From the NCBI RefSeq assembly GCF_024298765.1, contig NZ_CP101210.1: a DNA stretch of 64,000 nucleotides. One strand, given 5' to 3'. The DNA comes from Escherichia coli. Lineage in GTDB: Bacteria > Pseudomonadota > Gammaproteobacteria > Enterobacterales > Enterobacteriaceae. The notes under the pieces were generated by a model that was given only the letters and a program-made list of their open reading frames with translations, had not been told where the DNA came from and searched no databases. The translations under genes and the position numbers were made by a program. Positions 5,089 to 36,217 of this stretch are shown piece after piece. Positions within the stretch are counted from its first letter, which is position 1. Every line of letters starts with the position of its first letter.

Positions 5089-5868
5089 TTACGCCAGTTG
5101 TACGGACACGAACTCATCAGGGTCAGCCAGCAGCATCAGCGGTGCTGACTGAATCATGGTGAACTCACGCGCCGGATCGCCGGTGGTCACCCAGTTTTTC
5201 GGGTAACGGGCAGAGGCGTTAATGCCTTCGCGCTGTGCGTCCGCATCCTGAATGCAGCCATAGGTGCGCAGACCGCGTGCATGAGTGTTACCCAGCACCA
5301 TCGTGTTGTCCGGCAGGAAGTTCTTTTTGACGCCGTTTTCCACGTACTGTCCGGAATACACGACGATGGCCACATCGCCATACATCCCCTTATAGGACAC
5401 CGCTTTACCCAGGTCTTTCACCGCTGTCTCCAGCTCGGAATGAGAGCCGCGACGGGTATCCAGCTTCTCCTTGACGGCGTTGAAGGAACGGAACAGCGCC
5501 CAGCCTTTCGGATCAAACACGATGATATTCACCACGCCGCTGGCGTTCAGCGCGTAGGCTTCGATATCGTCGGTCGGGTCATACGTGGACTTGTCACGCT
5601 TGCTCCACTCCGTGCCGCCGGACTGCGTGATGTTGTTCGCCGCACTGCGGCCCATATCCACCTCAACCGGATCGAAGGCTTCACCGGTCATGGTGTATTT
5701 GCCCTTGAGCACGGCAGAAACTGCCTGCATCTCTTCGACCTGAGCAATGGCCAGCTCTTCGTCACGCATGTTCTGCAGGATGATGCGACGGCGGCGGTAA
5801 GCCGGGTCCGCCAGATTCTGCGGATCTTCATCCGGCAGGCGACGCAGGGTCATCTGCGGATTCACTTC
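5089..5868 (-). pseudogene. E: major capsid protein E, C-terminal ~258 codons, separated from its 5' part by a ~10.9 kb insertion
   Basis: ORF 5089..5865 begins EVNPQMTLRRLPDE..., i.e. lambda gpE from about residue 91; no start codon of its own. Confidence 0.9.
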
Positions 5869-5869
5869 A

Positions 5870-5879
5870 TGCTTGGGTT
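5870..5879. repeat. left junction direct repeat (att core copy) TGCTTGGGTT
   Basis: Identical 10-mer at 16754..16763; context atgcttgggtta vs gtgcttgggttt. Confidence 0.8.
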
Positions 5880-5955
5880 ACATGAGTCAAATATGAAAGG
5901 ATGTGAATGATTTGATTACGTTTTAGCTATAGAATTGAAATGGAAAATCCTTGAA

Positions 5956-5976
5956 TGCAATACAACGTGCAATACA
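5956..5976. repeat. GCAATACA direct repeats near left end (candidate arm-type integrase sites)
   Basis: tgcaatacaacgtgcaatacatgg; the same motif recurs at the right end. Confidence 0.45.
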
Positions 5977-6013
5977 TGGATGAAAACCATCACTCATTTA
6001 ACAAGAGGAATCT

Positions 6014-6919
6014 ATGCGCTCACCCAACAGAATGCATGAACGCTCAACATTTTATAAGTATATGTCGTTGAATACCGCGAAGATTGTTCTTGATTCATGC
6101 AGCCTTAGATGGAGTTCTCCGGTCCTATTTAATGACCCTTTTGATGTTCCAAGAGAAGTTATGCCTGGTATTAACGAAATTAATATTGGCAAAGCTTTAG
6201 CCCGCAAGTTAATAGCGGAGTTGATTACCCCCAGAGAAGACATACAAAATTTAAACCCTAGAATTAGAACAATGCTAAGTGATTTCCAAAAGTCATTTCC
6301 TTTAGGCATACCCGCAGGATTAATTGAAAGATTTCAAGAAATGGTAAACATTCCACCAGTTGGGATTGGCGCTCCTGCGGCAATACAAGAAATGAAAGAT
6401 ATCTGGCGAGGAATGCTTAATAACAGAAGGATTTTGTGTTTATCTGAGAGCCCTATAATCACTCCTATGTGGAATCACTATGCCGATAAATATAAAGGTA
6501 TAGTTATCGAATTTGATTGTGTAGACTTTCTGGATAGCGCTTGGTTAATAGCCAAACCTATGAAATACACAGATGAAATGCCTCTAACTCACACTGCTGA
6601 AGGGATGGCCGAGTTGCTTTTCATGCCAGACAATAAGTCAATTGAATATATCAATAATGAGATAATATTCATAAAAACAGAAGAATGGGCATATGAAAGA
6701 GAGTGGAGAATTTCAACCTACGCTAGGCCAAATAGCACTGGTCAATATAGCGACTTAAAATTTCACCCTTTTGAGTTAAAATCTGTAATACTTGGTCCTC
6801 TTTTTGATGCCAGCGAGTTCGATGAAGTCGCATCACTAGTTAAAATGTATCCAAGAGCGAAATTATTTAAAAGTTCATTTGGGAACGACAGAAAAATATC
6901 CATAGTACCACTACCTTAA
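6014..6919 (+). CDS. DUF2971-like hypothetical protein, AT-rich cargo
   Basis: 301 aa; motifs FYKY, LFNDPFD, EWAYEREWR recalled as DUF2971-like; codon usage visibly more AT-rich than neighbours; hairpin terminator follows. Confidence 0.6.
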   Translation: MRSPNRMHERSTFYKYMSLNTAKIVLDSCSLRWSSPVLFNDPFDVPREVMPGINEINIGKALARKLIAELITPREDIQNLNPRIRTMLSDFQKSFPLGIPAGLIERFQEMVNIPPVGIGAPAAIQEMKDIWRGMLNNRRILCLSESPIITPMWNHYADKYKGIVIEFDCVDFLDSAWLIAKPMKYTDEMPLTHTAEGMAELLFMPDNKSIEYINNEIIFIKTEEWAYEREWRISTYARPNSTGQYSDLKFHPFELKSVILGPLFDASEFDEVASLVKMYPRAKLFKSSFGNDRKISIVPLP

Positions 6920-7025
6920 AAGGTCAAATGCTTTTGACAAATAAAATCTATCGCCAGTTTTACTGGCGACTTTTAAGCAACAAAGAACCACCTAAGCACT
7001 CTTCCTACCTATGGTTTCATTTGTT

Positions 7026-7577
7026 TTAACTTCGCTGATTATCCTTGATATACCTTTCAGCCATATCTGGAATGTTATCTGAGATCTGGTAAGCTCGAAT
7101 AAATGCTTTACTGACCTCCATCTTAATGAAGTCCTGATACCGTTTTTCCATGCCAGGAAACTGTCGACAGATCGCAAGTGGAAGACTATCAATGATTGCT
7201 CCAACTTCCCCAGTTAATTTCGACAAGGCATAAGTCGCAAATGCAGTGTCAATTACCTCACCTGTTTCGCTGGCATTCTTCAGTTCCTGTGCGTCGGCCT
7301 GCGCACGCGTAAGTCGATGGCGTTCGTACTCAATAGTCCCTGGCTGGAGATCTGTCTCGCTGGCCTGCCGCAGTTCTTCAACTTCCCGGCGCAGCTTTTC
7401 GTTCTCAATTTCAGCATCCCTTTCGGCATACCATTTTATGACGGCGGCAGAGTCATAAAGCACCTCATTACCCTTGCCACCGCCTCGCAGAACGGGCATT
7501 CCCTGTTCCTGCCAGTTCTGAATGGTACGGATACTCGCACCGAAAATGTCAGCCAGCTGCTTTTTGTTGACTTCCAT
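7026..7577 (-). CDS. terminase small subunit Nu1-like; N-terminal ~100 aa identical to the prophage Nu1, C-terminal half divergent
   Basis: 183 aa; MEVNKKQLADIFGASIRTIQNWQEQG... identical to ORF 22397..22942 over the DNA-binding domain, then about half-identical. Confidence 0.85.
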   Translation of the reverse strand: MEVNKKQLADIFGASIRTIQNWQEQGMPVLRGGGKGNEVLYDSAAVIKWYAERDAEIENEKLRREVEELRQASETDLQPGTIEYERHRLTRAQADAQELKNASETGEVIDTAFATYALSKLTGEVGAIIDSLPLAICRQFPGMEKRYQDFIKMEVSKAFIRAYQISDNIPDMAERYIKDNQRS

Positions 7578-7599
7578 TGTTCATTCCACGGACAAAAAC

Positions 7600-7790
7600 A
7601 GAGAAAGGAAACGACAGAGGCCAAAAAGCTCGCTTTCAGCACCTGTCGTTTCCTTTCTTTTCAGGGGGTATTTTAAATAAAAACATTAAGTTACGACGAA
7701 GAAGAACGGAAACGCCTTAAACCGGAAAATTTTCATAAATAGCGAAAATCCGCGCGCCTGACGCCCCGTAGCCTGTCAGATCGCCGGAAA
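7600..7790 (-). other. cos-like site of the element: cosB conserved, cosN divergent
   Basis: Aligns base for base with prophage cos at ~22960..23150; the 12-nt cohesive-end sequence differs at 5 positions (aggtcgccgccc vs cgcctgacgccc on the + strand). Confidence 0.7.
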
Positions 7791-7822
7791 GGACCCGCCA
7801 GCCAGAGCGGGCCCTAATTTCA

Positions 7823-8206
7823 TCAACCAATCAGCTTATAGCGACCATCCCGTGCATTGCGGCGTACACGCTCAATCTTGAGGCATAGCGCCGCATCTGG
7901 CTTTTTTGGGACAGGTACGCGGCAATATTCAGAAGCGCGAGGAATATTATTTATCCAGTCGATCACTTCACTTAAATACCAGGCCTTACGCCCTTCCGTA
8001 ACCTGCACACGCTCCGGGAACTCTCCACTAGCCTCAAGGTTTAGCAGTGTACGCCGACTCAGGGTTGTAATTTCCATCACCTGATTCATATCAACAAGGC
8101 GCTCGCTTAAACACATTTTGTCAGCGATAGCTTTTAATTCCTCTACAGCTGGATTCGGGTACATCATTTCGGCAATTGGCTTAAGGTCATTGTAATCATT
8201 CTGCAT
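7823..8206 (-). CDS. AlpA-family DNA-binding protein with N-terminal extension
   Basis: 127 aa; C-terminal part (ITTLSRRTLLNLEASGEFPERVQVTEGRKAWYLSEVIDWI) resembles AlpA/excisionase-type wHTH. Confidence 0.6.
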   Translation of the reverse strand: MQNDYNDLKPIAEMMYPNPAVEELKAIADKMCLSERLVDMNQVMEITTLSRRTLLNLEASGEFPERVQVTEGRKAWYLSEVIDWINNIPRASEYCRVPVPKKPDAALCLKIERVRRNARDGRYKLIG

Positions 8207-8217
8207 TGTATCCCCCT

Positions 8218-8559
8218 TTACACACGAGCCAGCGGCTGAACAGAAATACCTGAGCCAACAAACGCTGCAATCTTTACTGACAGTTCTTTTACAGACTCAG
8301 GCCAGTTCAGAGCATCAACATTTAAGACACCTGTCTTATAGACCTGAGCCTGTGTTTTTTTCGCGGTGTCGATTTGTACAGCGGAAACATAAACCGCTTT
8401 ACCTACGCTCGAACCATCCCATACCACCAGTGCACCTGTTGCATCTTCCTGCATCAGTGGCGTAAATGCAGGAATTACCCCTTTATTAGCTGAAAATATC
8501 CCCAGCGTAGTCACCAGTGCTTCAGTGCCAGCCATGAGTTCAGTGTAATGAGTAGCCAT
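8218..8559 (-). CDS. head decoration protein, gpD family
   Basis: 113 aa; ...VVWDGSSVGKAVYVSAV...FVGSGISVQ parallels lambda gpD ...[17 protein letters not shown]...FAGTAISIV. Confidence 0.65.
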   Translation of the reverse strand: MATHYTELMAGTEALVTTLGIFSANKGVIPAFTPLMQEDATGALVVWDGSSVGKAVYVSAVQIDTAKKTQAQVYKTGVLNVDALNWPESVKELSVKIAAFVGSGISVQPLARV

Positions 8560-8568
8560 TGCTCCCCC

Positions 8569-9609
8569 TTAGCCAATGCGAACGGTAACAAAACGATTGA
8601 TGCGGGCCGGTATTGGCTGTGGTGCTGAATGTGTCTGCACATATTCAATAGCCGGATCACCAGGCACAATATAGTTTTTCGGTGCAAGTTCGGCTTTAGT
8701 CAGCCCCATTCGGATTAGCTCCGGATCCTGAATACCGCCATAGGCGACAATCCCCTGAAGAGCCGTATTGCCAAGCACCATCAAATCAGGATCAAGGAAA
8801 TGTTTTTCAGTTCCGTCCTCGTCGGTATAACGCCCGCTGTATACAACAATCGCAACATCGCCCATATACCCTTTAAAACTCACCGAATCACCAAGGTCTT
8901 TAAGGGCCGTTTCCAGTTCGGAATTAGAGCCACGACGGGTATCCAGAGCCTCTTTTATCGCTCTGAATGAACGGTATTTCTTCCATACATTACCGCCCAT
9001 AATGATGATATTAGTGACGCCCTCACTAAATTCTGCGTAGCTCTCAATATCATCATTTGGATCAAAAGTTTCTTTATCCTTACCTGACCACTCAGCACCG
9101 CCAGACTGAGTGATGATATTTTGTGGTTTAATATTCCAGTCCAGCTCATAACGTTCAATACCATCGCCCTCAATGATATTTTTCCCCGTTGTGATTGCCT
9201 GAACGGCAAGCCATTCAATACGTGCACGAATAGATTTAGCCTGATTTACAATCGCCTGTTTAACTTTAATATTACGCGCTCCAAAAGCATTGTATTGCTC
9301 AGGTGATACACCAGCAGGGCGCACAGCTAACTTATTTGGATCAATGCTGCTTTTCGGCTTCATATAGCCTGGACGAATTGTTTTTGATTCGTACCCTTCG
9401 TCACGTGAAACTTTACTACCCACCATAGGAGAACAAAACGCTGCAATTGGGATATTTGGATCGTCGATTGTATCAAGAATAATATCGCGCGATTCAAACA
9501 TTACCGAGCGAGTAAAAAACAAACTGGTAAACAACGCATTTAGTTGTTTTTGTACATCTACAGCATTAACCACCTGTACAAGCTGGGTAGGCGAATATAA
9601 ATCAACCAT
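8569..9609 (-). CDS. major capsid protein, gpE family, divergent paralog of prophage E
   Basis: ORF 8569..9783; likely start MVDLYSPTQL... after AAGAGG RBS; conserved blocks TQSGGAEWSGKDKETFDPNDDIESYA and TRRGSNSELETALKDLG match gpE. Confidence 0.8.
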   Translation of the reverse strand: MVDLYSPTQLVQVVNAVDVQKQLNALFTSLFFTRSVMFESRDIILDTIDDPNIPIAAFCSPMVGSKVSRDEGYESKTIRPGYMKPKSSIDPNKLAVRPAGVSPEQYNAFGARNIKVKQAIVNQAKSIRARIEWLAVQAITTGKNIIEGDGIERYELDWNIKPQNIITQSGGAEWSGKDKETFDPNDDIESYAEFSEGVTNIIIMGGNVWKKYRSFRAIKEALDTRRGSNSELETALKDLGDSVSFKGYMGDVAIVVYSGRYTDEDGTEKHFLDPDLMVLGNTALQGIVAYGGIQDPELIRMGLTKAELAPKNYIVPGDPAIEYVQTHSAPQPIPARINRFVTVRIG

Positions 9610-9826
9610 ACGCATCCTCTTTGCATTCATTAAAAATAATTGTGGATATATGCTATCACCGATATTTGTCATGCGAATACATGCAACCGAGTGCAATGTT
9701 GTATAAAGTTTTGGGATAACAACTTCAGCGCGGATAATTAGTGTTAATATCTTAACTCCCTTTGGTCGGGATTTATGTAGCATGCCGGAAAATTTATTTT
9801 TTTCCGGCCTTTTTTATTGGCAATAT

Positions 9827-10276
9827 TTAAAACGGAATATCATCTCCCCATTGCTCATTATCTCCCACTGGTGGATGGCTTCCTTGCTGATCTGCCTGTT
9901 GTTTTGCTCTGTTCAGTGCGTCAGTAGCCTGACCCTGTTGACCTTTTTTGCCGCCCGGTCGCACCGTTCGCGCACTGATTACGCTGTCTGCGATAACCTG
10001 CCAGCCCTGCCGCGTTTCACCGTTCTGTCCAGTCCACTGGCTCACCTGCATATTACCCGCCACGCTCAGGAGTTCGCCTTTGTGATGCTTTGCCAGCGCG
10101 TCGGCTTGTCTGCCAAACGCCAGGACAGATAACCACATCGTCGCCGTTCCGTCATCTGCCTGGCTGCATGGCAAAGATACCGCCATCCGTGCCAGTGTCA
10201 TGGGTGTTCCCTTGCTGGTATGTTTTACCTGTGGGTCGTCCACCAGCCGCCCGTAAGCTGCTATTTGCGCCGTCAT
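9827..10276 (-). CDS. SSB-like single-stranded DNA-binding protein
   Basis: 149 aa; OB-fold-like N-terminus and C-terminal acidic tail ending DDIPF, the SSB hallmark. Confidence 0.6.
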   Translation of the reverse strand: MTAQIAAYGRLVDDPQVKHTSKGTPMTLARMAVSLPCSQADDGTATMWLSVLAFGRQADALAKHHKGELLSVAGNMQVSQWTGQNGETRQGWQVIADSVISARTVRPGGKKGQQGQATDALNRAKQQADQQGSHPPVGDNEQWGDDIPF

Positions 10277-10287
10277 GCTGCCTGCTC

Positions 10288-10530
10288 TCAGGACTTAATA
10301 TTGATGGTTGTCACTTCCTCCGCTTCGGCAATCTCCCGTTCGGTCAGCGTGGCAAAGTTTGCAGCCGCCGTTGTCATGAATGCGCTTATCAGTTCGGGAT
10401 GTGCTTTCGCGTATCCTTCCCCGGCGTTGCGGTCTATTGCCTTAATCGCCACCCTTAGCCAGTGTTCAGCCATATCAAGGGCGCGGTAATGTGGCTTTAT
10501 ATGTTTGTTCAGTTTTCCTGATGTGTGCAT
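10288..10530 (-). CDS. hypothetical protein
   Basis: 80-aa ORF downstream of the iteron region, same strand as the replication genes. Confidence 0.4.
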   Translation of the reverse strand: MHTSGKLNKHIKPHYRALDMAEHWLRVAIKAIDRNAGEGYAKAHPELISAFMTTAAANFATLTEREIAEAEEVTTINIKS

Positions 10531-10569
10531 TTTTATTTTTACCCCCTCGTTTAAAAAGTTTTTTGTGCA

Positions 10570-10805
10570 CCACCACCTTGTCTACCTTGTCTACCTGATT
10601 AGTTATCAGGCCAGTAATGGCGCGGGTTTCAGGGAGGTAGACAGCCCCAAATAGCTGTCTACCTCATCTCTACCCGTCTCCTTACCTGTCTACAAAAATG
10701 GGTAGATAAGGTAGATAACAGGTAGACAGTGAAAAATAGTTATCTACCTGCATTAATGCATTGAAATAAAAGTATTTTATTTCAGTCAGGTAGACAAGGT
10801 AGATA
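10570..10805. repeat. iteron array GGTAGAYA (11 or more copies, both orientations): candidate replication origin
   Basis: ttgtctaccttgtctacc, ggtagacag, ctgtctacc, ggtagataaggtagataacaggtagacag, ttatctacc, ggtagacaaggtagataa; immediately downstream of the primase-helicase gene. Confidence 0.75.
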
Positions 10806-10819
10806 ACCATTGCCATTTT

Positions 10820-12571
10820 TTATAAAAACGCATCGCAATCATCAGTAGTCGTTGCGTTGGTCTGCGTGACTCCCTTAACTTTTCGCGTAATATATTCATA
10901 TCCGTAAACTTTCGCCGCTGACCTCATAGCCTTTCCGAACTCATTCACGCTCAAACATTTCCCCTTTCCTGTATATGCCATGAAGGCCATATAGACACGG
11001 TAAAGGCTGTTTCTGGTCGTGTACTTCACGGTGTCACCACCACCGCCCATCATTAGCCCACGAGCTTCCTCCAGAAACTCCAGCGCCGCGCAAAGCTCAA
11101 CAACCGGATCCGTTTGCTGCTTTATTGCCAGAGCTTCATCACCGTCACGCTGTTCCAGTAATAAAGCCCGTGCCTTTTCAGGGTCAGCAAAATTAGCCAG
11201 CAAGCGGCGGATAATTACGGGGATTTCTGCCGCTATCTTTTCCGGTAATTCCTTGTCTTTTTCGTCCTCCCTTACAATGTTGTCGAACCGGAAAATCACC
11301 CGACGGCGTGACACACCTCCGGCCCGTTCGGTAAAGATCATCGGGTCGTTATTGGTTGCCAGTACCACCGCCCTTATTATCGTCGTGAATCGCTTCTCAT
11401 ATTTCGGGTTAATTTCAACGGGATCGCCTCCCGTGATTTTCTTGATGCCCGTGCCTTCCCCCGTATATTTCGGCTGATCGGCAAGGACGATAAGACGACT
11501 CCCGACAACCTGCGCACGCCCTCCTGCATCATCGAGTGATGTCATCTCTGCGCTTACGGTGTTCTGTTTGCCAGCAAGCAGGGTGGCAATATGGGTAAAT
11601 GTACTCTTACCGCTTCCCCCGTCTCCGGTGGCCTCAATGAACATCTGCCAGTCGTACCGGTTCGCCATAATCATGTACAGCGCGGCACATATACGCATCA
11701 TCTTGCGCGGGTCTTTTCCGGCTGCGTGCTCAAGCCATTTATGAAAGTTTGGCGCGTTATCGCGGATGTTCTCCCCTGGTGCTGGTGGCGTGTACTCAAT
11801 GCCGTTGTGCGTGGTGATCCAGTTCTCCGGCGTGTGCGGGGAAAATTCCCCCGTTTTCAGGTCAAGCGCACCATTGGCGAACGGCAGCAAATCGCCGGAC
11901 GGCTCGCCCATTGGTTCGGCAATAACTTTTAACGCTTCAACGGCGTTATTGATCACGCGTTTGCTGAAAGTGGCCCTGTGCTCTGAATAGATCGCCACCA
12001 TTTCGCGGCTCAGCTCCATTGTGCTGATCGGACACCATACCCCGCCGCGCCATACGTGAACGATTTCACTTTCCGGATGCACACAAACGCCATCAAAGCG
12101 CTCGGCAAGCAGCTGCGCGCGCTCACTGTCTGCCATCTGTGAAAGTTGCGCCTTTTGCTTCGTCGGAAGATTAAGCACCAGGCTTTCCCCACGCTCGCAT
12201 TCCTCTTTGAGTCGCGGCAACTGGTCGGATAAATCCACTGGGCTGATGTCAGTAATCCCCGCGTATTCGTGTACGGTCTTCACTCCAGCCACAGCCAGTA
12301 ACGTAACAATCTGCGTCATGCTGTGCTCTGTGATATGTCCTGCGCGGTAAACACGCACACACTGACGATCTTCATCAATGATCCGGTAATCGGTGATGTT
12401 TTTCAGTTGCTCATCAGCCAACACGACAGGCGGCACATCGTCGGCGGCAATATGTTTACCCGCCCATTCCTGCCACTCTTTCGCATGGCTCCACGCATCA
12501 CTACCTGCAAAGATGATTATCTCTGTCAGTCTGTCGCGTGGCTGTTTTTTTAAGTTCGGTGCCAGTTTCAT
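10820..12571 (-). CDS. primase-helicase (P4 alpha / D5-type replication protein)
   Basis: 583 aa; Walker A GDGGSGKST in the C-terminal half; domain layout as in satellite and plasmid primase-helicases. Confidence 0.75.
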   Translation of the reverse strand: MKLAPNLKKQPRDRLTEIIIFAGSDAWSHAKEWQEWAGKHIAADDVPPVVLADEQLKNITDYRIIDEDRQCVRVYRAGHITEHSMTQIVTLLAVAGVKTVHEYAGITDISPVDLSDQLPRLKEECERGESLVLNLPTKQKAQLSQMADSERAQLLAERFDGVCVHPESEIVHVWRGGVWCPISTMELSREMVAIYSEHRATFSKRVINNAVEALKVIAEPMGEPSGDLLPFANGALDLKTGEFSPHTPENWITTHNGIEYTPPAPGENIRDNAPNFHKWLEHAAGKDPRKMMRICAALYMIMANRYDWQMFIEATGDGGSGKSTFTHIATLLAGKQNTVSAEMTSLDDAGGRAQVVGSRLIVLADQPKYTGEGTGIKKITGGDPVEINPKYEKRFTTIIRAVVLATNNDPMIFTERAGGVSRRRVIFRFDNIVREDEKDKELPEKIAAEIPVIIRRLLANFADPEKARALLLEQRDGDEALAIKQQTDPVVELCAALEFLEEARGLMMGGGGDTVKYTTRNSLYRVYMAFMAYTGKGKCLSVNEFGKAMRSAAKVYGYEYITRKVKGVTQTNATTTDDCDAFL

Positions 12572-12867
12572 TTTTTGCCCCTGAATGCGTTAATCATGCT
12601 TTTCATTTTCTGGATGTTTCCCCGCGCTTTTTCCCTGCTGATGGGCTTACTGCGGGGTGCGGCATATACCAGGGAAAAATCACGCCGGAACTGATAAACA
12701 GGCATCACGCAGTCATAGCTATACCCCTCACGACGGTAAGTGATGCGCCGTTCTGCCACGCCTTTAATCGTTACCGTGCCGCCGTATTTATCGCGGTAAA
12801 TATCGCCGTTCATAAATTCAGGCCGAGCGGGGCCGCTGGCAATAAAGCCAGAATTTTTCATTTCCAT
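12568..12867 (-). CDS. hypothetical protein
   Basis: 99-aa ORF, abuts the primase-helicase start. Confidence 0.4.
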   Translation of the reverse strand: MEMKNSGFIASGPARPEFMNGDIYRDKYGGTVTIKGVAERRITYRREGYSYDCVMPVYQFRRDFSLVYAAPRSKPISREKARGNIQKMKSMINAFRGKK

Positions 12868-12884
12868 ATTATTTATTCCTCGAC

Positions 12885-13106
12885 TTAACTCGACTTATTT
12901 GATAGCTGGGCACTATTTATTGCGTCATTGAGTTTTTCTGCTGCTTCATCAATAAGTGACAACAGGCCATAAGCAATATTTGCATCTTCATTGTCATTTA
13001 TGCAATCAAGCCACATATTTAATATTGCTTTTGCTGAATTATTTAAAGTTAATGAACTTTCTGCACATGCTAACAATTTAAAAAAGACTTCCCGTTCTGT
13101 ATTCAT
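12885..13106 (-). CDS. hypothetical protein
   Basis: 73-aa ORF in a tightly packed small-gene operon. Confidence 0.4.
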   Translation of the reverse strand: MNTEREVFFKLLACAESSLTLNNSAKAILNMWLDCINDNEDANIAYGLLSLIDEAAEKLNDAINSAQLSNKSS

Positions 13107-13298
13107 TTAATCCCCCACCAGCTTACTTTCTTCCTCAATCAAAAAACTAGCGACACTTCCCGAAAGACGCGCCAGTAGGCTCGCCAGTGCGGATATATCA
13201 GCATCTGTAATTTTGTTCGGGTATACCTCAAGAAGGCGGCAAATAATTTCTGTCTGGTGCGCACGTTCAGCGGCTTCGTGTAATGTGATTTCCTGCAT
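13107..13298 (-). CDS. hypothetical protein
   Basis: 63-aa ORF; its stop abuts the next ORF. Confidence 0.4.
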   Translation of the reverse strand: MQEITLHEAAERAHQTEIICRLLEVYPNKITDADISALASLLARLSGSVASFLIEEESKLVGD

Positions 13299-13483
13299 TA
13301 ATGCACCTCTTTTAATTCATACACTGCTGAAATAATGACTTGTGATAAGCCATATTCTGATGATTCGCTTCTCACCGCAGCAATAGCCGTCTGAACATTA
13401 ACAGCCTTCACATTCTGAGCGATACCAATTGTGTGGCCTATTGGGTTAACAGCTCGGGCAAATACACGGAAGGTTTTAAGCAT
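13298..13483 (-). CDS. hypothetical protein
   Basis: 61-aa ORF, first gene of the leftward operon. Confidence 0.4.
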   Translation of the reverse strand: MLKTFRVFARAVNPIGHTIGIAQNVKAVNVQTAIAAVRSESSEYGLSQVIISAVYELKEVH

Positions 13484-13863
13484 GACTCACTCCCTGGCGG
13501 ATTTTTGCAGCGAATACAGCAACACAACCGGACGGGCAACGGCTACGCGCTTCGCGTTCCGTCCAGGCGGTTACGTGGATGATTTGAGATTCTCCGGCAC
13601 TCAGTGCCAGAAAACGCCACACAAAGGCCGTTTGTGTGTGTACAAGGTGTGGTATATGATTTACAGCAACCATAACGGCTCCTAGTTTACGTTGTTGGTT
13701 AGACGCCCCGTATGTGTTCCCAGCACTGCGGGGCGTTGCTCTTTGTATTTCAACAATCCTTTCGGTGTGTTTCATGTTATGAGCGCATGAAACACACGTC
13801 AAGGCTTTTTGTATTTCTTTTTTTGTGTATACTGAAACACACCGATGATTAGGAGTTTCAGAA

Positions 13864-14169
13864 ATGGCAACGGCTAACAAAAACGCAAAATCACAACTGA
13901 CAACTGTCAGAGTCCCACTAGATGTTATGCAAGGGATGGAATCCGTTAAGCTGGACGGTGAAAGCAATGCCGGATTTATCGTAACCGCCATGCGCGGTGA
14001 AATCGCCCGCCGCCAGGCAGAAGGAAGCGGAGAAAATCCCCTCGTGTCTTCACTGGATGCCTTAGCTAAGGTCGAACAAATCGGCATCAAGGCAGCGGAG
14101 GAAATCGGGCAACTCGTAGCCGTCGCTCGTGAAGAACTCCAGCGGCGTAAAGCCAAAGAATCTGAATAA
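13864..14169 (+). CDS. putative ribbon-helix-helix transcriptional regulator
   Basis: 101 aa; AGGAG RBS; TVRVPLDVMQGMESV...NAGFIVTAMRGEI fits a beta-strand plus two helices; divergent from the small-gene operon. Confidence 0.5.
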   Translation: MATANKNAKSQLTTVRVPLDVMQGMESVKLDGESNAGFIVTAMRGEIARRQAEGSGENPLVSSLDALAKVEQIGIKAAEEIGQLVAVAREELQRRKAKESE

Positions 14170-14519
14170 TTAGTATCAGCGCCGTGATGTGAGTAACTAC
14201 GGCGCATTGCTATGTAAATACTGGCAATAAACAGAAAAGGTAGTTCTACTCCGAATAATTTTATCTGACACTACTCCTGAACTAACATGCGCTTATCTTA
14301 CAGGATATAAATATAAATCCATAAAATCACGATTAAATAAAGTCGCTCCAAACATAAACCACACCCAACGCTTAACAAGATAGCAACAAACAGGTAAATA
14401 ACTTGCAGAAATATTTATCGCAAGGATTATCATTATTAATGACAAATCACTTTACCAAGTCATTCCCCTCTCTTATCATAAAGAGAAAGTAATAAATAAG
14501 TTAAGGGAGTTAGAATGCT

Positions 14520-15056
14520 ATGAATCTAAAAAAAATAGCCACAAACACAAAAAACAAGATAACAGAAACATTTAATAAACTTATATTAGAGGCATCTAAA
14601 ACCCCCACACAAGATGAAATTAAAATACTTGAGAGAAGGAGTAAGAAGTTTAATTACTCCTTTTTCTCATACGCAGTCACAGGAGCTATAATAGTTTTTT
14701 GCTCTCAACCATTAATTAAATACGCAAACCCAATACTTATTTTATTGAGTGGTCTGTTACTGTCTATCATCATTATCATTCTCAGAATGATTTATATTTC
14801 ACAAGCGAATGCATCATGGACAACCAAAAAACGCTCACATGTACTAGTTCATTTTCTTTCTGCATGTTTCATAGCATCAACATTGACGTTGCTATATCAG
14901 GCTTACGATAATAACATCACACACAAATTGTACTGTAAAAATATACAACAACTTATTGAAAAAAGGATAAAAACAGAAAAAAACATCAGCATATTCAGTG
15001 GGATGCAATGCACCCCGGTATATGATTACTCTTTATTTGGATTTAATCTCTTATAA
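14520..15056 (+). CDS. hypothetical membrane protein, AT-rich cargo
   Basis: 178 aa; three hydrophobic segments (AVTGAIIVFCSQPLI, ILILLSGLLLSIIIIIL, VLVHFLSACFIASTLTLL); GGGAG RBS; AT-rich. Confidence 0.55.
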   Translation: MNLKKIATNTKNKITETFNKLILEASKTPTQDEIKILERRSKKFNYSFFSYAVTGAIIVFCSQPLIKYANPILILLSGLLLSIIIIILRMIYISQANASWTTKKRSHVLVHFLSACFIASTLTLLYQAYDNNITHKLYCKNIQQLIEKRIKTEKNISIFSGMQCTPVYDYSLFGFNLL

Positions 15057-15067
15057 AGAATGTTATT

Positions 15068-15101
15068 ACTGATTTGAGTACAAATTCTCAAATCAGTAAT
15101 T
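15068..15101. terminator. perfect 13-bp inverted repeat hairpin between convergent genes
   Basis: ttactgatttgag-N8-ctcaaatcagtaa. Confidence 0.5.
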
Positions 15102-15125
15102 CATAATATTTTATTCTGAGATAAT

Positions 15126-15353
15126 TTAAACTACCCACTCACCTCGAATCCATGCCTGCACTTCTGAAAGACGATATGCAACAGCAGTGGAACCAATCTT
15201 GATCCGCTTAGGAAATTTTCCTTCCTTCTCCAGCTTCCAGCGTGTGCTGTTCGCAAGAGTGGTTAGCTCCCGACATTCTTTCTCACGGATCATTCGGTCA
15301 ATGTTAGGAATGTACTCCAGACCCTTTTTATCAACAATTGCCATTTTTTTCAT
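15126..15353 (-). CDS. alpA: AlpA-family regulator/excisionase-like protein
   Basis: ORF 15126..15362; ...LTTLANSTRWKLEKEGKFPKRIKIGSTAVAYRLSEVQAWI typical of AlpA; directly follows int. Confidence 0.65.
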   Translation of the reverse strand: MKKMAIVDKKGLEYIPNIDRMIREKECRELTTLANSTRWKLEKEGKFPKRIKIGSTAVAYRLSEVQAWIRGEWVV

Positions 15354-15354
15354 G

Positions 15355-16590
15355 TTAACCAACCTTTTGTTTGAGGATTGTCACTTTTGAATCAGCACCT
15401 GCGATGCTATTGAGATATGTAGTCCAGAGTTCCAGAGCATCCAGTTTTTTAGCCATAAACTTACTCCGGTTGTAAACACCTGCCACGCCAGGTAGCGCAT
15501 GGCCTAACAGTTGTTCTACTACATAAAATTCAACACCGAGATCACTTAGATGAGTAGATAGCGTTCTTCTAAGGTCGTGTAGTGACCATTGTTTTTCATG
15601 GCCCAAACGTTTACCGATTTTCCCCCCAATCTTGCTTACGCTTTCTCTAATTCGCAGACTTCCCAGCACATAACCAGTATGTTTTGTCTCTTCGTGAACA
15701 TCCGTTACCCACTGTCGTAGAATTTCAGGTACTGGTCTGACGATTTCAACACCAGTTTTTGAGTGATCTTTTGGTACAGTCCAAACCCAACTTTCGAGAT
15801 CCCATTCGCTCCATTCTGATAATCGGGCTTCACTCATTCGACATCCAAATACTGTACAAAGCACAAACATTTTTCGCGTGTATTCAGACATTAGTTTTAA
15901 ATCAGGCTCGACAAAAATTGCCTTCCAGAGCTGGCCGAGTTCGGCTTCATCCAGAACCCGATCCCGCTTACCTGCAATCTGCCCCACATCACTCATGCGC
16001 AAATCCTTTAAAGCATCACACGTCGCGTACTGGCGTACCCGACAAAAACGAAGAGCTAATTTAGTGTCAGAAAAAACATACGCCGCCATAACTGGTGCAT
16101 TACGTTTAATTCGGTCAAAACAGTCCAGCCATTCATATAGGTGAGTGTCATTTACGGGCAAATGACCGATATAGGGAAAGATATGCTTTCGAAATCTGCC
16201 AAGCGTTACAGCATGAGTTTTACGACGCACCTTACAGTAATTTTCATACCAGTAATTTAGTGCATCCTCCACTGTAACTGGCTTTAAGCGTTCTTCAGCC
16301 TGAATCTTAATCTGGATACGCGGATCACGTTTGTCAGCCAACCAACCACGGCACTCGTCGCGCTTTTCCCTTGCCTGTTTGAGTGACATATCAGGATATT
16401 TACCCAACGTTAGCCAGACCGGAGCAGCCCGGCCACCTGCTAACCTGTAGAAGAAAACAAAGCTCACAGCCCCTTTAGTACTCACACGAATAGAAAGCCC
16501 CTTTCCATCAGCAATGGTGATCTGCTTTTCTCTGGGTTTCCCCAGATATCCTTTAAGCGCTTTGTCGCTCAGTTTGTTCTCGCCAGCCAT
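15355..16590 (-). CDS. int: tyrosine integrase, P4-like
   Basis: ORF 15355..16641; probable start MAGENKLSDKALKG...; C-terminal catalytic region with HDLRRT and GH motifs. Confidence 0.85.
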   Translation of the reverse strand: MAGENKLSDKALKGYLGKPREKQITIADGKGLSIRVSTKGAVSFVFFYRLAGGRAAPVWLTLGKYPDMSLKQAREKRDECRGWLADKRDPRIQIKIQAEERLKPVTVEDALNYWYENYCKVRRKTHAVTLGRFRKHIFPYIGHLPVNDTHLYEWLDCFDRIKRNAPVMAAYVFSDTKLALRFCRVRQYATCDALKDLRMSDVGQIAGKRDRVLDEAELGQLWKAIFVEPDLKLMSEYTRKMFVLCTVFGCRMSEARLSEWSEWDLESWVWTVPKDHSKTGVEIVRPVPEILRQWVTDVHEETKHTGYVLGSLRIRESVSKIGGKIGKRLGHEKQWSLHDLRRTLSTHLSDLGVEFYVVEQLLGHALPGVAGVYNRSKFMAKKLDALELWTTYLNSIAGADSKVTILKQKVG

Positions 16591-16605
16591 TTTTAGCCCC
16601 AAAAA

Positions 16606-16640
16606 GCAATACAAGCTGCAATACAGAGATGATTGCAACA
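16606..16640. repeat. GCAATACA repeats near right end (candidate arm-type integrase sites)
   Basis: aagcaatacaagctgcaatacagagatgattgcaacaca between int start and the right junction. Confidence 0.45.
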
Positions 16641-16752
16641 CACAGATAACGAGGAAAATTCAGTGAAAGCACCAGATAAACTTATTCTTTATTATCAAAA
16701 GATTAAGTGTAAAAACCAGCAACTACACGAAAGCCTCAGAAAGCCATGCTAA

Positions 16753-16998
16753 GTGCTTGGGTTTGACATATCCCGGCGTAAATTCAGAGGTGGAGCCGCC
16801 ACGGGAACGGATAACCTCACCGGAAACAATCGGCGAAACGTACAGCGCCATGTTTACCAGTCCCGGAATTTGTGAGAGATAGACTTTCTCCGTAGTGAAG
16901 GGATAGCTCTCACGGAAAAAGAGACGCAGAAACAGCGGATCAAACTTAAATTTCTGCTCATTTGCCGCCAGCAGCTGGGCGGTTGTGTACATCGACAT
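16753..16998 (-). pseudogene. E: major capsid protein E, N-terminal ~90 codons; frame runs into the insertion and stops at 16723
   Basis: ORF 16723..17025: MSMYTTAQLLAANEQKFKFDPLF...GYVKPKH then LAWLSEAFV* from element DNA. Confidence 0.9.
16754..16763. repeat. right junction direct repeat (att core copy) TGCTTGGGTT
   Basis: Identical 10-mer at 5870..5879. Confidence 0.8.
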
Positions 16999-22959: not shown

Positions 22960-23150
22960 AAAACAGAGAAAGGAAACGACAAAGGCCCAAAAGTTCGTTT
23001 TCAGCACCTGTCGTTTCCTTTCTTTTCAGGGGTTATTTTAAATAAAAACATTAAGTTACGACGAAGAAGAACGGAAACACCTTAAACCGGAAAATTTTCA
23101 TAAATAGCAAAAACCCGCGAGGTCGCCGCCCCGTAACCTGTCGGATCGCC
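22960..23150 (-). other. prophage cos site (cosB R/IHF elements plus cosN); cohesive-end sequence GGGCGGCGACCT at about 23120..23131
   Basis: aaaacccgcgaggtcgccgccccgtaacctgtcggatcgcc is the reverse complement of lambda cosN with flanks as recalled. Confidence 0.85.
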
Positions 23151-35848: not shown

Positions 35849-36217
35849 GTGTCAAACATCAAAAAATACATCATTGATTACGACTGGAAAGCATCAATAG
35901 AAATTGAAATCGACCATGACGTAATGACAGAGGAAAAACTTCACCAGATTAATAATTTCTGGTCAGACTCTGAATACCGACTCAATAAACACGGCTCTGT
36001 ATTAAATGCTGTATTAATCATGCTGGCGCAACATGCTCTGCTTATAGCAATTTCAAGCGACTTAAATGCATATGGTGTTGTGTGTGAGTTCGACTGGAAT
36101 GATGGAAATGGTCAGGAAGGATGGCCTCCAATGGATGGTAGCGAAGGAATAAGAATTACCGATATCGATACATCAGGAATATTTGATTCAGATGATATGG
36201 CTATCAAGGCCGCCTGA
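35849..36217 (+). CDS. ea10: Ea10-like early protein
   Basis: 122 aa, GTG start with GAGGA RBS; position between N and cIII as lambda ea10. Confidence 0.6.
   Translation: MSNIKKYIIDYDWKASIEIEIDHDVMTEEKLHQINNFWSDSEYRLNKHGSVLNAVLIMLAQHALLIAISSDLNAYGVVCEFDWNDGNGQEGWPPMDGSEGIRITDIDTSGIFDSDDMAIKAA

Follow-up and report, generated by a model that had tools for sequence, protein, structure and literature searches.

Integrases of the lambda type are heterobivalent and recognise arm repeats that flank the core on either side; in lambda itself these are the sites P1, P2 and P'1 to P'3, accompanied by sites for integration host factor (IHF), in an attP of ~240-250 bp with a bending-protein site between arm and core. 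Arm repeats were reportedly also described for the attP of P4 by Pierson and Kahn in 1987. A family of satellites that uses a P4-family integrase, the helper-embedded phage-inducible chromosomal islands (HE-PICIs), has been published more recently (Tommasini, Mageeney & Williams 2023, PMC10111431); its prototype Eco567.11capE of E. coli NRG857c occupies the site E:Phage_cap_E:80, and a 10-bp attachment (att) identity block as well as experimental excision were reported (PMC10111431). The same study noted a motif, tgTGTATTGCantgTGTATTGCa, that is doubled and occurs twice in the same orientation, at 81±2 and 132±2 bp from the centre of attP, stated that it is absent from the PICIs at fis, and proposed the integrase's arm domains, AlpA or a DNA-binding protein of unknown identity as binders, leaving the choice open (PMC10111431). 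Here we analysed a stretch of 64,000 nucleotides of Escherichia coli (assembly GCF_024298765.1, contig NZ_CP101210.1; referred to as the window, with positions counted from its first letter), which contains a 10,884-bp phage satellite (5880-16763) inside the capsid gene of a lambda-like prophage and, just within both ends of this insert, doublets of the motif GCAATACA.

Both the element and its motif are already known. tgTGTATTGCantgTGTATTGCa of PMC10111431 is the reverse complement of the GCAATACA motif, and the right arm of the NRG857c element is 99.4% identical to that of the window; the two elements share the insertion point in the lambda E homologue, the 10-bp block, the motif, its co-orientation and the 81/132-bp geometry, and no material difference was seen in the window. 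The prophage gene E is split after ~81 codons with the 10-bp block TGCTTGGGTT at both junctions, the extended motif has its edge 81.5 bp from the centre of the block on the left and 131.5 bp on the right, both within the published ranges, and int, alpA and the primase gene are co-oriented with the interrupted E on the minus strand in a PICI-like organisation. The result for the window chiefly confirms the element boundaries, and the insertion is of the published kind of satellite that keeps the capsid gene of its helper hostage until its own excision.

For the motif, we consider it probable that each of the four GCAATACA half-sites serves the satellite's own P4-family tyrosine integrase as an arm-type binding site. 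An earlier note on this DNA had described a motif repeated two to three times in the same orientation at both ends of the element, and indeed two exact pairs and one degenerate copy are present:

5957..5964, plus strand: int-distal arm, half-site 1, exact match to GCAATACA (TGTATTGC on the int-coding strand)
5969..5976, plus strand: int-distal arm, half-site 2, exact match to GCAATACA, 12 bp past half-site 1
16606..16613, plus strand: int-proximal arm, first half-site, exact match to GCAATACA, 15 nt upstream of the int ATG
16618..16625, plus strand: int-proximal arm, second half-site, exact match to GCAATACA, 12 bp from the first
16635..16642, plus strand: possible weak third half-site GCAACACA, degenerate, with one mismatch (mismatch search)
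15355..16590, minus strand: P4-family tyrosine integrase of 411 aa (Pfam PF13356, E 3.7e-19, and PF00589)

The two pairs are spaced by exactly 12 bp each, and all four copies lie on the plus strand of the window. Doubled 8-mers with a 12-bp period are expected about once per 64 kb, and none of 200 Markov simulations produced a single 8-mer that was doubled in two different locations (analytic probability ~3e-5). Three more exact single copies of GCAATACA were found at 6380 (plus), 9291 (minus) and 24164 (minus), so that 7 copies in total stand against an expectation of 2.8, a barely unusual excess given that 7 was reached in 5 of 100 shuffles, and copies with one mismatch are at chance level (55 seen, 64.5 expected). 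Because single copies occur elsewhere at chance frequency, only the doublet is specific to the ends of the element; the copy at 9291 recurs in relatives for no other reason than its location within a conserved capsid gene. The confinement of the motif to the ends that the earlier note proposed to check is therefore true of the doublet and fails for the single 8-mer. A further doublet with a 12-bp period, CTGTATTAA..CTGTATTAA (TGTATTAA), is located at 35997-36017 in a 122-aa open reading frame (ORF) of the prophage early region; as it lies within an ORF and about one such doublet is expected by chance, it was dismissed as a third meaningful doublet.

In the related elements, the doublet is conserved where the surrounding sequence is not. 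It is found at an identical offset in eight elements with six unrelated int-distal arms, and one of these elements has a triplet. When 49 complete elements are compared, the 40 nt next to the distal doublet sort into ~20 clusters that cannot be aligned with each other, and 18 different tetranucleotides fill the 4-nt spacer between the half-sites while the 8-mer is constant. In a sample of 27 junctions, which was anchored on the junction and not on the motif, the distal doublet is exact in 25 and has one mismatch in the remaining 2, at an offset of 87-88. The arrangement TGTATTGC-N4-TGTATTGC is also kept with integrases that are 49-57% identical, in HE-PICIs located in other late genes and in at least seven unrelated proximal arms, and the position of the doublet is fixed relative to the crossover, not to the int ATG (13-70 nt). 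The related-locus search of viral contigs returned mostly near-identical capE elements and thus informs about the diversity of distal arms, not about outgroups. At the position of the degenerate copy at 16635, two other site groups show a GTTGCA-like remnant and others show none; a perfect third copy of the half-site exists in other site groups on the int side instead. Lying at fixed distances inside both att junctions of an integrase-bearing element, and being retained in relatives whose arms cannot otherwise be aligned, the pairs lend the support to the proposed ends that the earlier note had claimed for them. In one relative (L128, E. coli 90-9280, ~5900-26400), the HE-PICI resides within a ClpP-protease/capsid fusion gene of another PICI-like element that carries its own integrase, a satellite nested in a satellite, and its distal doublet has one mismatch.

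The junctions with the prophage are located as follows:

5870..5879: left copy of the att identity block TGCTTGGGTT, which borders on the 3' part of the prophage gene E
16754..16763: right att identity block, the same 10-mer, junction with the 5' part of E
5089..5879, minus strand: 3' fragment of the helper prophage's major capsid gene E (sequence; lambda matches)
16754..16998, minus strand: 5' fragment of the helper prophage E, ~81 codons (MSMYTTAQLLAANEQKF...)

When the outer flanks are joined, the reading frame of the lambda major capsid gene E is restored (..GYVKPKHEVNPQMTLRRL..). The shared block is reduced to TGCTTGG in one relative (L001), and the crossover segment is probably these 7 bp (5870-5876). 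The reconstructed attP measures ~255 bp, and on the int-coding strand it consists of the distal doublet, ~77 bp, the crossover block of 7-10 bp, ~55 bp, an IHF-like site, ~65 bp, the proximal doublet, 15 nt and the int ATG, with all half-sites co-oriented and the 12-bp period in each doublet. The repeat occurs on both sides of the core within attP and is unrelated to the core sequence, as is expected of arm-type sites. In its length and in the location of a candidate bending-protein site between arm and core, this attP resembles that of lambda; lambda differs in the family of the N-terminal integrase domain, in having 2+3 sites with a spacing of ~10-11 bp, and in that its int is not known to be transcribed from within the arm.

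The resemblance to P4 is closer. In the P4 record (NC_001609), 12-bp 'attP arm sequence repeats' are annotated: an adjacent pair lies 16-39 bp upstream of int and two further units are on the other side of the core, each of them on the int strand and with the half-site GGGGGCA. The window shows the same 2+2 co-oriented 12-bp repeats, and its integrase likewise has an Arm-DNA-bind_3 domain; its half-site is TGTATTGC instead, and its target is a phage capsid gene where that of P4 is a tRNA gene. P4 also has shorter distances between its arms and the 20-bp core, with gaps of 112 and 53 bp, and an additional inverted copy across the int start. In relatives other than HE-PICIs, too, a direct repeat with an exact 12-bp period is present 30-70 nt upstream of int. 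Elements at the fis site have such a doublet, beginning 130-132 bp past the att block CAGTTCATGCCGTA; in complete fis PICIs, a further co-oriented doublet lies at the far end, ~81 bp from the block there, and two co-oriented TGTATAAAC doublets were found in eleven IMG/VR contigs. Wherever the geometry could be measured in these relatives, it agreed with that of the window. The half-sites of these relatives fall into different classes, namely TGTATAAAC, GTGTATCAC/GTATCAA, GTGTAGTC (variant GTGCAGTC), GTGGGGTAC/TAA and GTGGGGCAC, and further GGTGTGTAGCA, GGGGGTACAT, ATGGGGGTACAT and TGTGGGTT. Contrary to the absence stated in PMC10111431, fis PICIs thus possess the doublet architecture with different half-sites. 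Taken together with the P4 record, the 12-bp doublets across relatives mark the window motif as the local version of an arm architecture of the P4 family; the modest novelty here is that the doublet is general to the P4 integrase family and not peculiar to HE-PICIs. In Shewanella relatives (L288, 323-391; L289, 9909-9953), up to 5-6 tandem 12-bp arm units (GGGGGTACATAT) instead of two are found upstream of int.

The integrase possesses a separate domain suited to such sites. The arm-DNA-binding domain (Arm-DNA-bind_3) comprises residues ~7-93 of Int; residues 17-98 are detectably similar in sequence to the arm-type binding domains 3JU0, 3JTZ and 3RMP of the HPI and HAI7 integrases, and an AlphaFold2 model (mean predicted local distance difference test score 84.6) matches the same three structures by fold, at 29-34% identity. 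The residues that are specific to half-site classes (33-37, 43-47 and 57-59) coincide with the predicted strands E32-36, E42-48 and E58-65 or border on them, and position 47 is K or R in classes with G-rich half-sites. A strict specificity-position filter over the integrase classes yielded nothing, and the per-class consensus alone was informative.

Which protein recognises the doublets can be approached by asking whose sequence predicts the half-site. The gene that competes with int for this role directly follows it:

15126..15353, minus strand: small AlpA-family helix-turn-helix protein, directly downstream of int (ORF list; annotated in relatives as AlpA family or helix-turn-helix regulator), probably the excisionase

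Using protein identity as predictor of a shared half-site in 56 loci (1,540 locus pairs), we obtained the following areas under the receiver operating characteristic curve (AUC) and numbers of pairs that are at least 90% identical and differ in their half-sites:

Int residues 1-100: AUC 0.955, 0 of 21 pairs
Rest of Int: AUC 0.772, 6 of 25 pairs
AlpA: AUC 0.792, 9 of 29 pairs

The few discordant pairs of Int N-terminal domains at an identity of at least 80% are single-base variants or truncated repeat strings. In the most telling case, Proteus mirabilis and P. columbae/P. hauseri have Int C-terminal parts that are 96% identical and AlpA proteins that are 97-98% identical, whereas the identity of their Int N-terminal domains reaches only 69% and they carry the half-sites GTGGGGTAC and TGTATAAACA, respectively; the divergent DNA forms a block from -147 to +200 (the doublet and codons 1-67) with flanks that are 90-100% identical. 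This swap was read on the proximal arm, and one of the loci (L330) has a proximal doublet only. Conversely, HE-PICIs share one common half-site even though AlpA identity drops to 36-45%, and scans of IMG/VR that started from the motif recovered the matching integrase class in 33 of 34 (WVFTYR) and 5 of 5 cases (W.FKYR). Across ~70 loci, the site sequence, with the caveat of linkage discussed below, thus co-varies with the arm-binding domain and does not follow the excisionase, which suggests that the integrase N-terminal domain is the better candidate of the two, a computational answer to the question of the binder posed in 2023. Covariation is also visible within one class (L264-L267, L273, L277), where GTGTAGTC goes with ..YR..(A/V)PQR and GTGCAGTC with ..FR..(N/K)SQR.

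Several points weigh against the assignment of the doublets to the integrase. In the literature we found no binding or mutational data on the motif, and PMC10111431 leaves its binder open. The proximal doublet adjoins the N-terminal codons, and in attP both doublets are within ~400 bp of them, so that co-inheritance by linkage could inflate the covariation; moreover, the locus pairs are not phylogenetically independent, and the assignment of loci to half-site classes relied on a crude longest-common-substring rule. Distal arms are readable in only a minority of the non-HE loci, as most of those in species representatives lie beyond the 10-kb flank. A perfect IHF match is found in only about one fifth of the loci, with a strand that differs between classes, and the promoter predicted upstream of int is weak and based on a consensus match only.

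The alternative that the doublets bind the AlpA-family excisionase, a recombination directionality factor, has the position of alpA directly after int in its favour, and AlpA has been named as a possible binder (PMC10111431); direct repeats spaced by roughly one turn of the helix are the typical binding sites of directionality factors (PMC7498355). Yet AlpA proteins that are 88-98% identical are accompanied by unrelated half-sites, as in the discordant pairs counted above, and the half-site of HE-PICIs stays invariant across divergent AlpA proteins. In addition, there are doublets on both arms with four half-sites in total, and the equivalent repeats of P4 are annotated as arm repeats. Sites of directionality factors are usually confined to one arm, which also counts against AlpA, and its exclusion does not depend on linkage; we therefore regard binding by AlpA in place of the integrase as improbable. 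Hardly more plausible is a different DNA-binding protein of the element or a host factor, for which PMC10111431 leaves room with its unknown protein: a host factor cannot explain class-specific half-sites in hosts as closely related as the Proteus species, the gene content of the fetched loci besides int, alpA and replication genes varies widely, and the half-site tracks the Int N-terminal domain.

It is similarly improbable that the proximal doublet is only an operator of int, serving autoregulation or as a barrier against read-through from helper late transcription, with the distal doublet incidental and no role in recombination. The proximal pair is indeed located 15 nt upstream of the int ATG and downstream of the predicted promoter, and IntS of KplE1 represses its own promoter via arm sites (PMC2951348). 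The operator sites of KplE1 are themselves recombination arm sites, so that an operator would be an added function and not an alternative; besides, the distal doublet keeps a fixed distance to the crossover beside highly variable cargo and far from int, and the proximal doublet holds its distance to the core and not to the ATG. Chance repeats or replication iterons, finally, are a negligible option. The near-chance frequency of single GCAATACA copies and the unrelated doublet in the ORF at 35997 might speak for them, but shuffles and simulations rule out a chance origin of the doublets, which are moreover conserved across dozens of elements. An iteron or origin role would call for a multi-copy cluster by a replication gene; the doublets lie at the element ends instead, and a distinct GGTAGAYA cluster beside the primase gene (10570-10815) fills that place. 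The arm-type interpretation given by the earlier note is thus supported by the sequence comparisons, that is, by the Arm-DNA-bind_3 domain, the annotated P4 arm repeats and the covariation of half-site and Int N-terminal domain.

If the doublets are arm-type sites of the integrase, recombination might proceed as follows. The C-terminal domains of an integrase tetramer would bind and cut the core in the capsid gene E, and the four N-terminal domains, each a three-stranded sheet, would occupy one arm half-site each. A host bending protein would fold the long arm back to the core, and the resulting complexes would insert the satellite into E and later, after induction of the helper, excise it and thereby restore the capsid gene. 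Integrase bound to the proximal doublet would probably also damp int expression, since this doublet separates the int ATG from the upstream E fragment or promoter. Candidates for the accessory sites are:

16693..16705, plus strand: candidate site for IHF, TATCAAAAGATTA, flanked by the int-proximal arm pair and the core (consensus match)
16684..16713, minus strand: weak prediction of a sigma-70-like promoter that would lie upstream of int (TTTACA and AAGAAT with an 18-nt spacer; 9 of 12 consensus matches)

The IHF consensus has only 3 matches in the window, and where perfect matches occur among 98 related loci, 20 of 23 start 77-82 nt away from the first half-site, a density 17 times that of the background. 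The predicted promoter, if real, would place the arm pair in the int leader. The P' arm of KplE1 (CPS-53) offers a parallel, as there, too, the int 5' end abuts the att arm and arm sites lie in the int promoter or leader (PMC2951348). By analogy with the negative autoregulation shown for IntS (PMC2951348), control of int by its own product would be plausible for the satellite; the KplE1 motif is a different one with a conserved TAAA core, and TorI sites are interspersed there (PMC2951348).

A more tentative idea is that arm specificity can be exchanged as a cassette and thereby keeps satellites orthogonal to each other; we see this as possible, if rather doubtful. It builds on the ~350-bp block exchanged between the Proteus elements (proximal doublet and int codons 1-67) and on different half-site classes in tandem at the same fis-side att site. 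If true, the diversity of arm codes would let satellites share a core site and nevertheless be excised singly, without cross-recombination; the code itself would lie in the beta-sheet positions ~35, 43-47 and 57-59, set against bases 4-8 of the half-site, and would be a readable recognition code for the re-targeting of P4-family integrases. In four loci (L250, L251, L280, L300), a doublet of a different class was seen ~235 bp upstream of the proximal doublet, and such a doublet is also present in L234 and L237, at ~270-290 nt upstream of int across these six loci. It appears to be the distal arm of another element, integrated in tandem with the first at one shared att site.

The int-side arm of the window element is present in 174 of 5,426 complete E. 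coli genomes, each time beside a split 'major capsid protein', and in RefSeq relatives the capsid fragment is annotated as 'major capsid protein, incomplete'. On the distal side, ~35 bp next to the core (5880-5915, ACATGAGTCAAATATGAAAGGATGTGAATGAT) are conserved in relatives with an unrelated adjacent arm; this stretch may hold a core-type site, excisionase sites or both. A variable cargo slot follows beside the int-distal arm. The window element has a DUF2971 gene there on the plus strand (6014-6919); in close relatives (L002-L007) the slot is taken by a gene for a restriction endonuclease, for an Abi-family protein or for a TIR-domain protein, and it looks like a hotspot for defence genes. 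The remaining genes include, all on the minus strand, those for SSB, an E-like capsid protein, a D-like decoration protein, a second AlpA and a Nu1-type small terminase. In the stretch 7026-7790, upstream of the Nu1 gene of the satellite, there is a lambda-like cos region whose cosB part is nearly identical to that of lambda; its cosN is altered (GGGGCGTCAGGCGCGCGGATTTTCGC versus GGGCGGCGACCTCGCGGGTTTTCGC in lambda), and the helper's own cosN is located at 23120-23131. The replication gene is the following:

10820-12571, minus strand: D5_N/DUF5906 primase (domain search)

In the gap just downstream of it, the cluster at 10570-10815 consists of ~12 copies of GGTAGAYA/TRTCTACC in both orientations, including tandems with a 9-bp period, and is probably the replication origin of the satellite.

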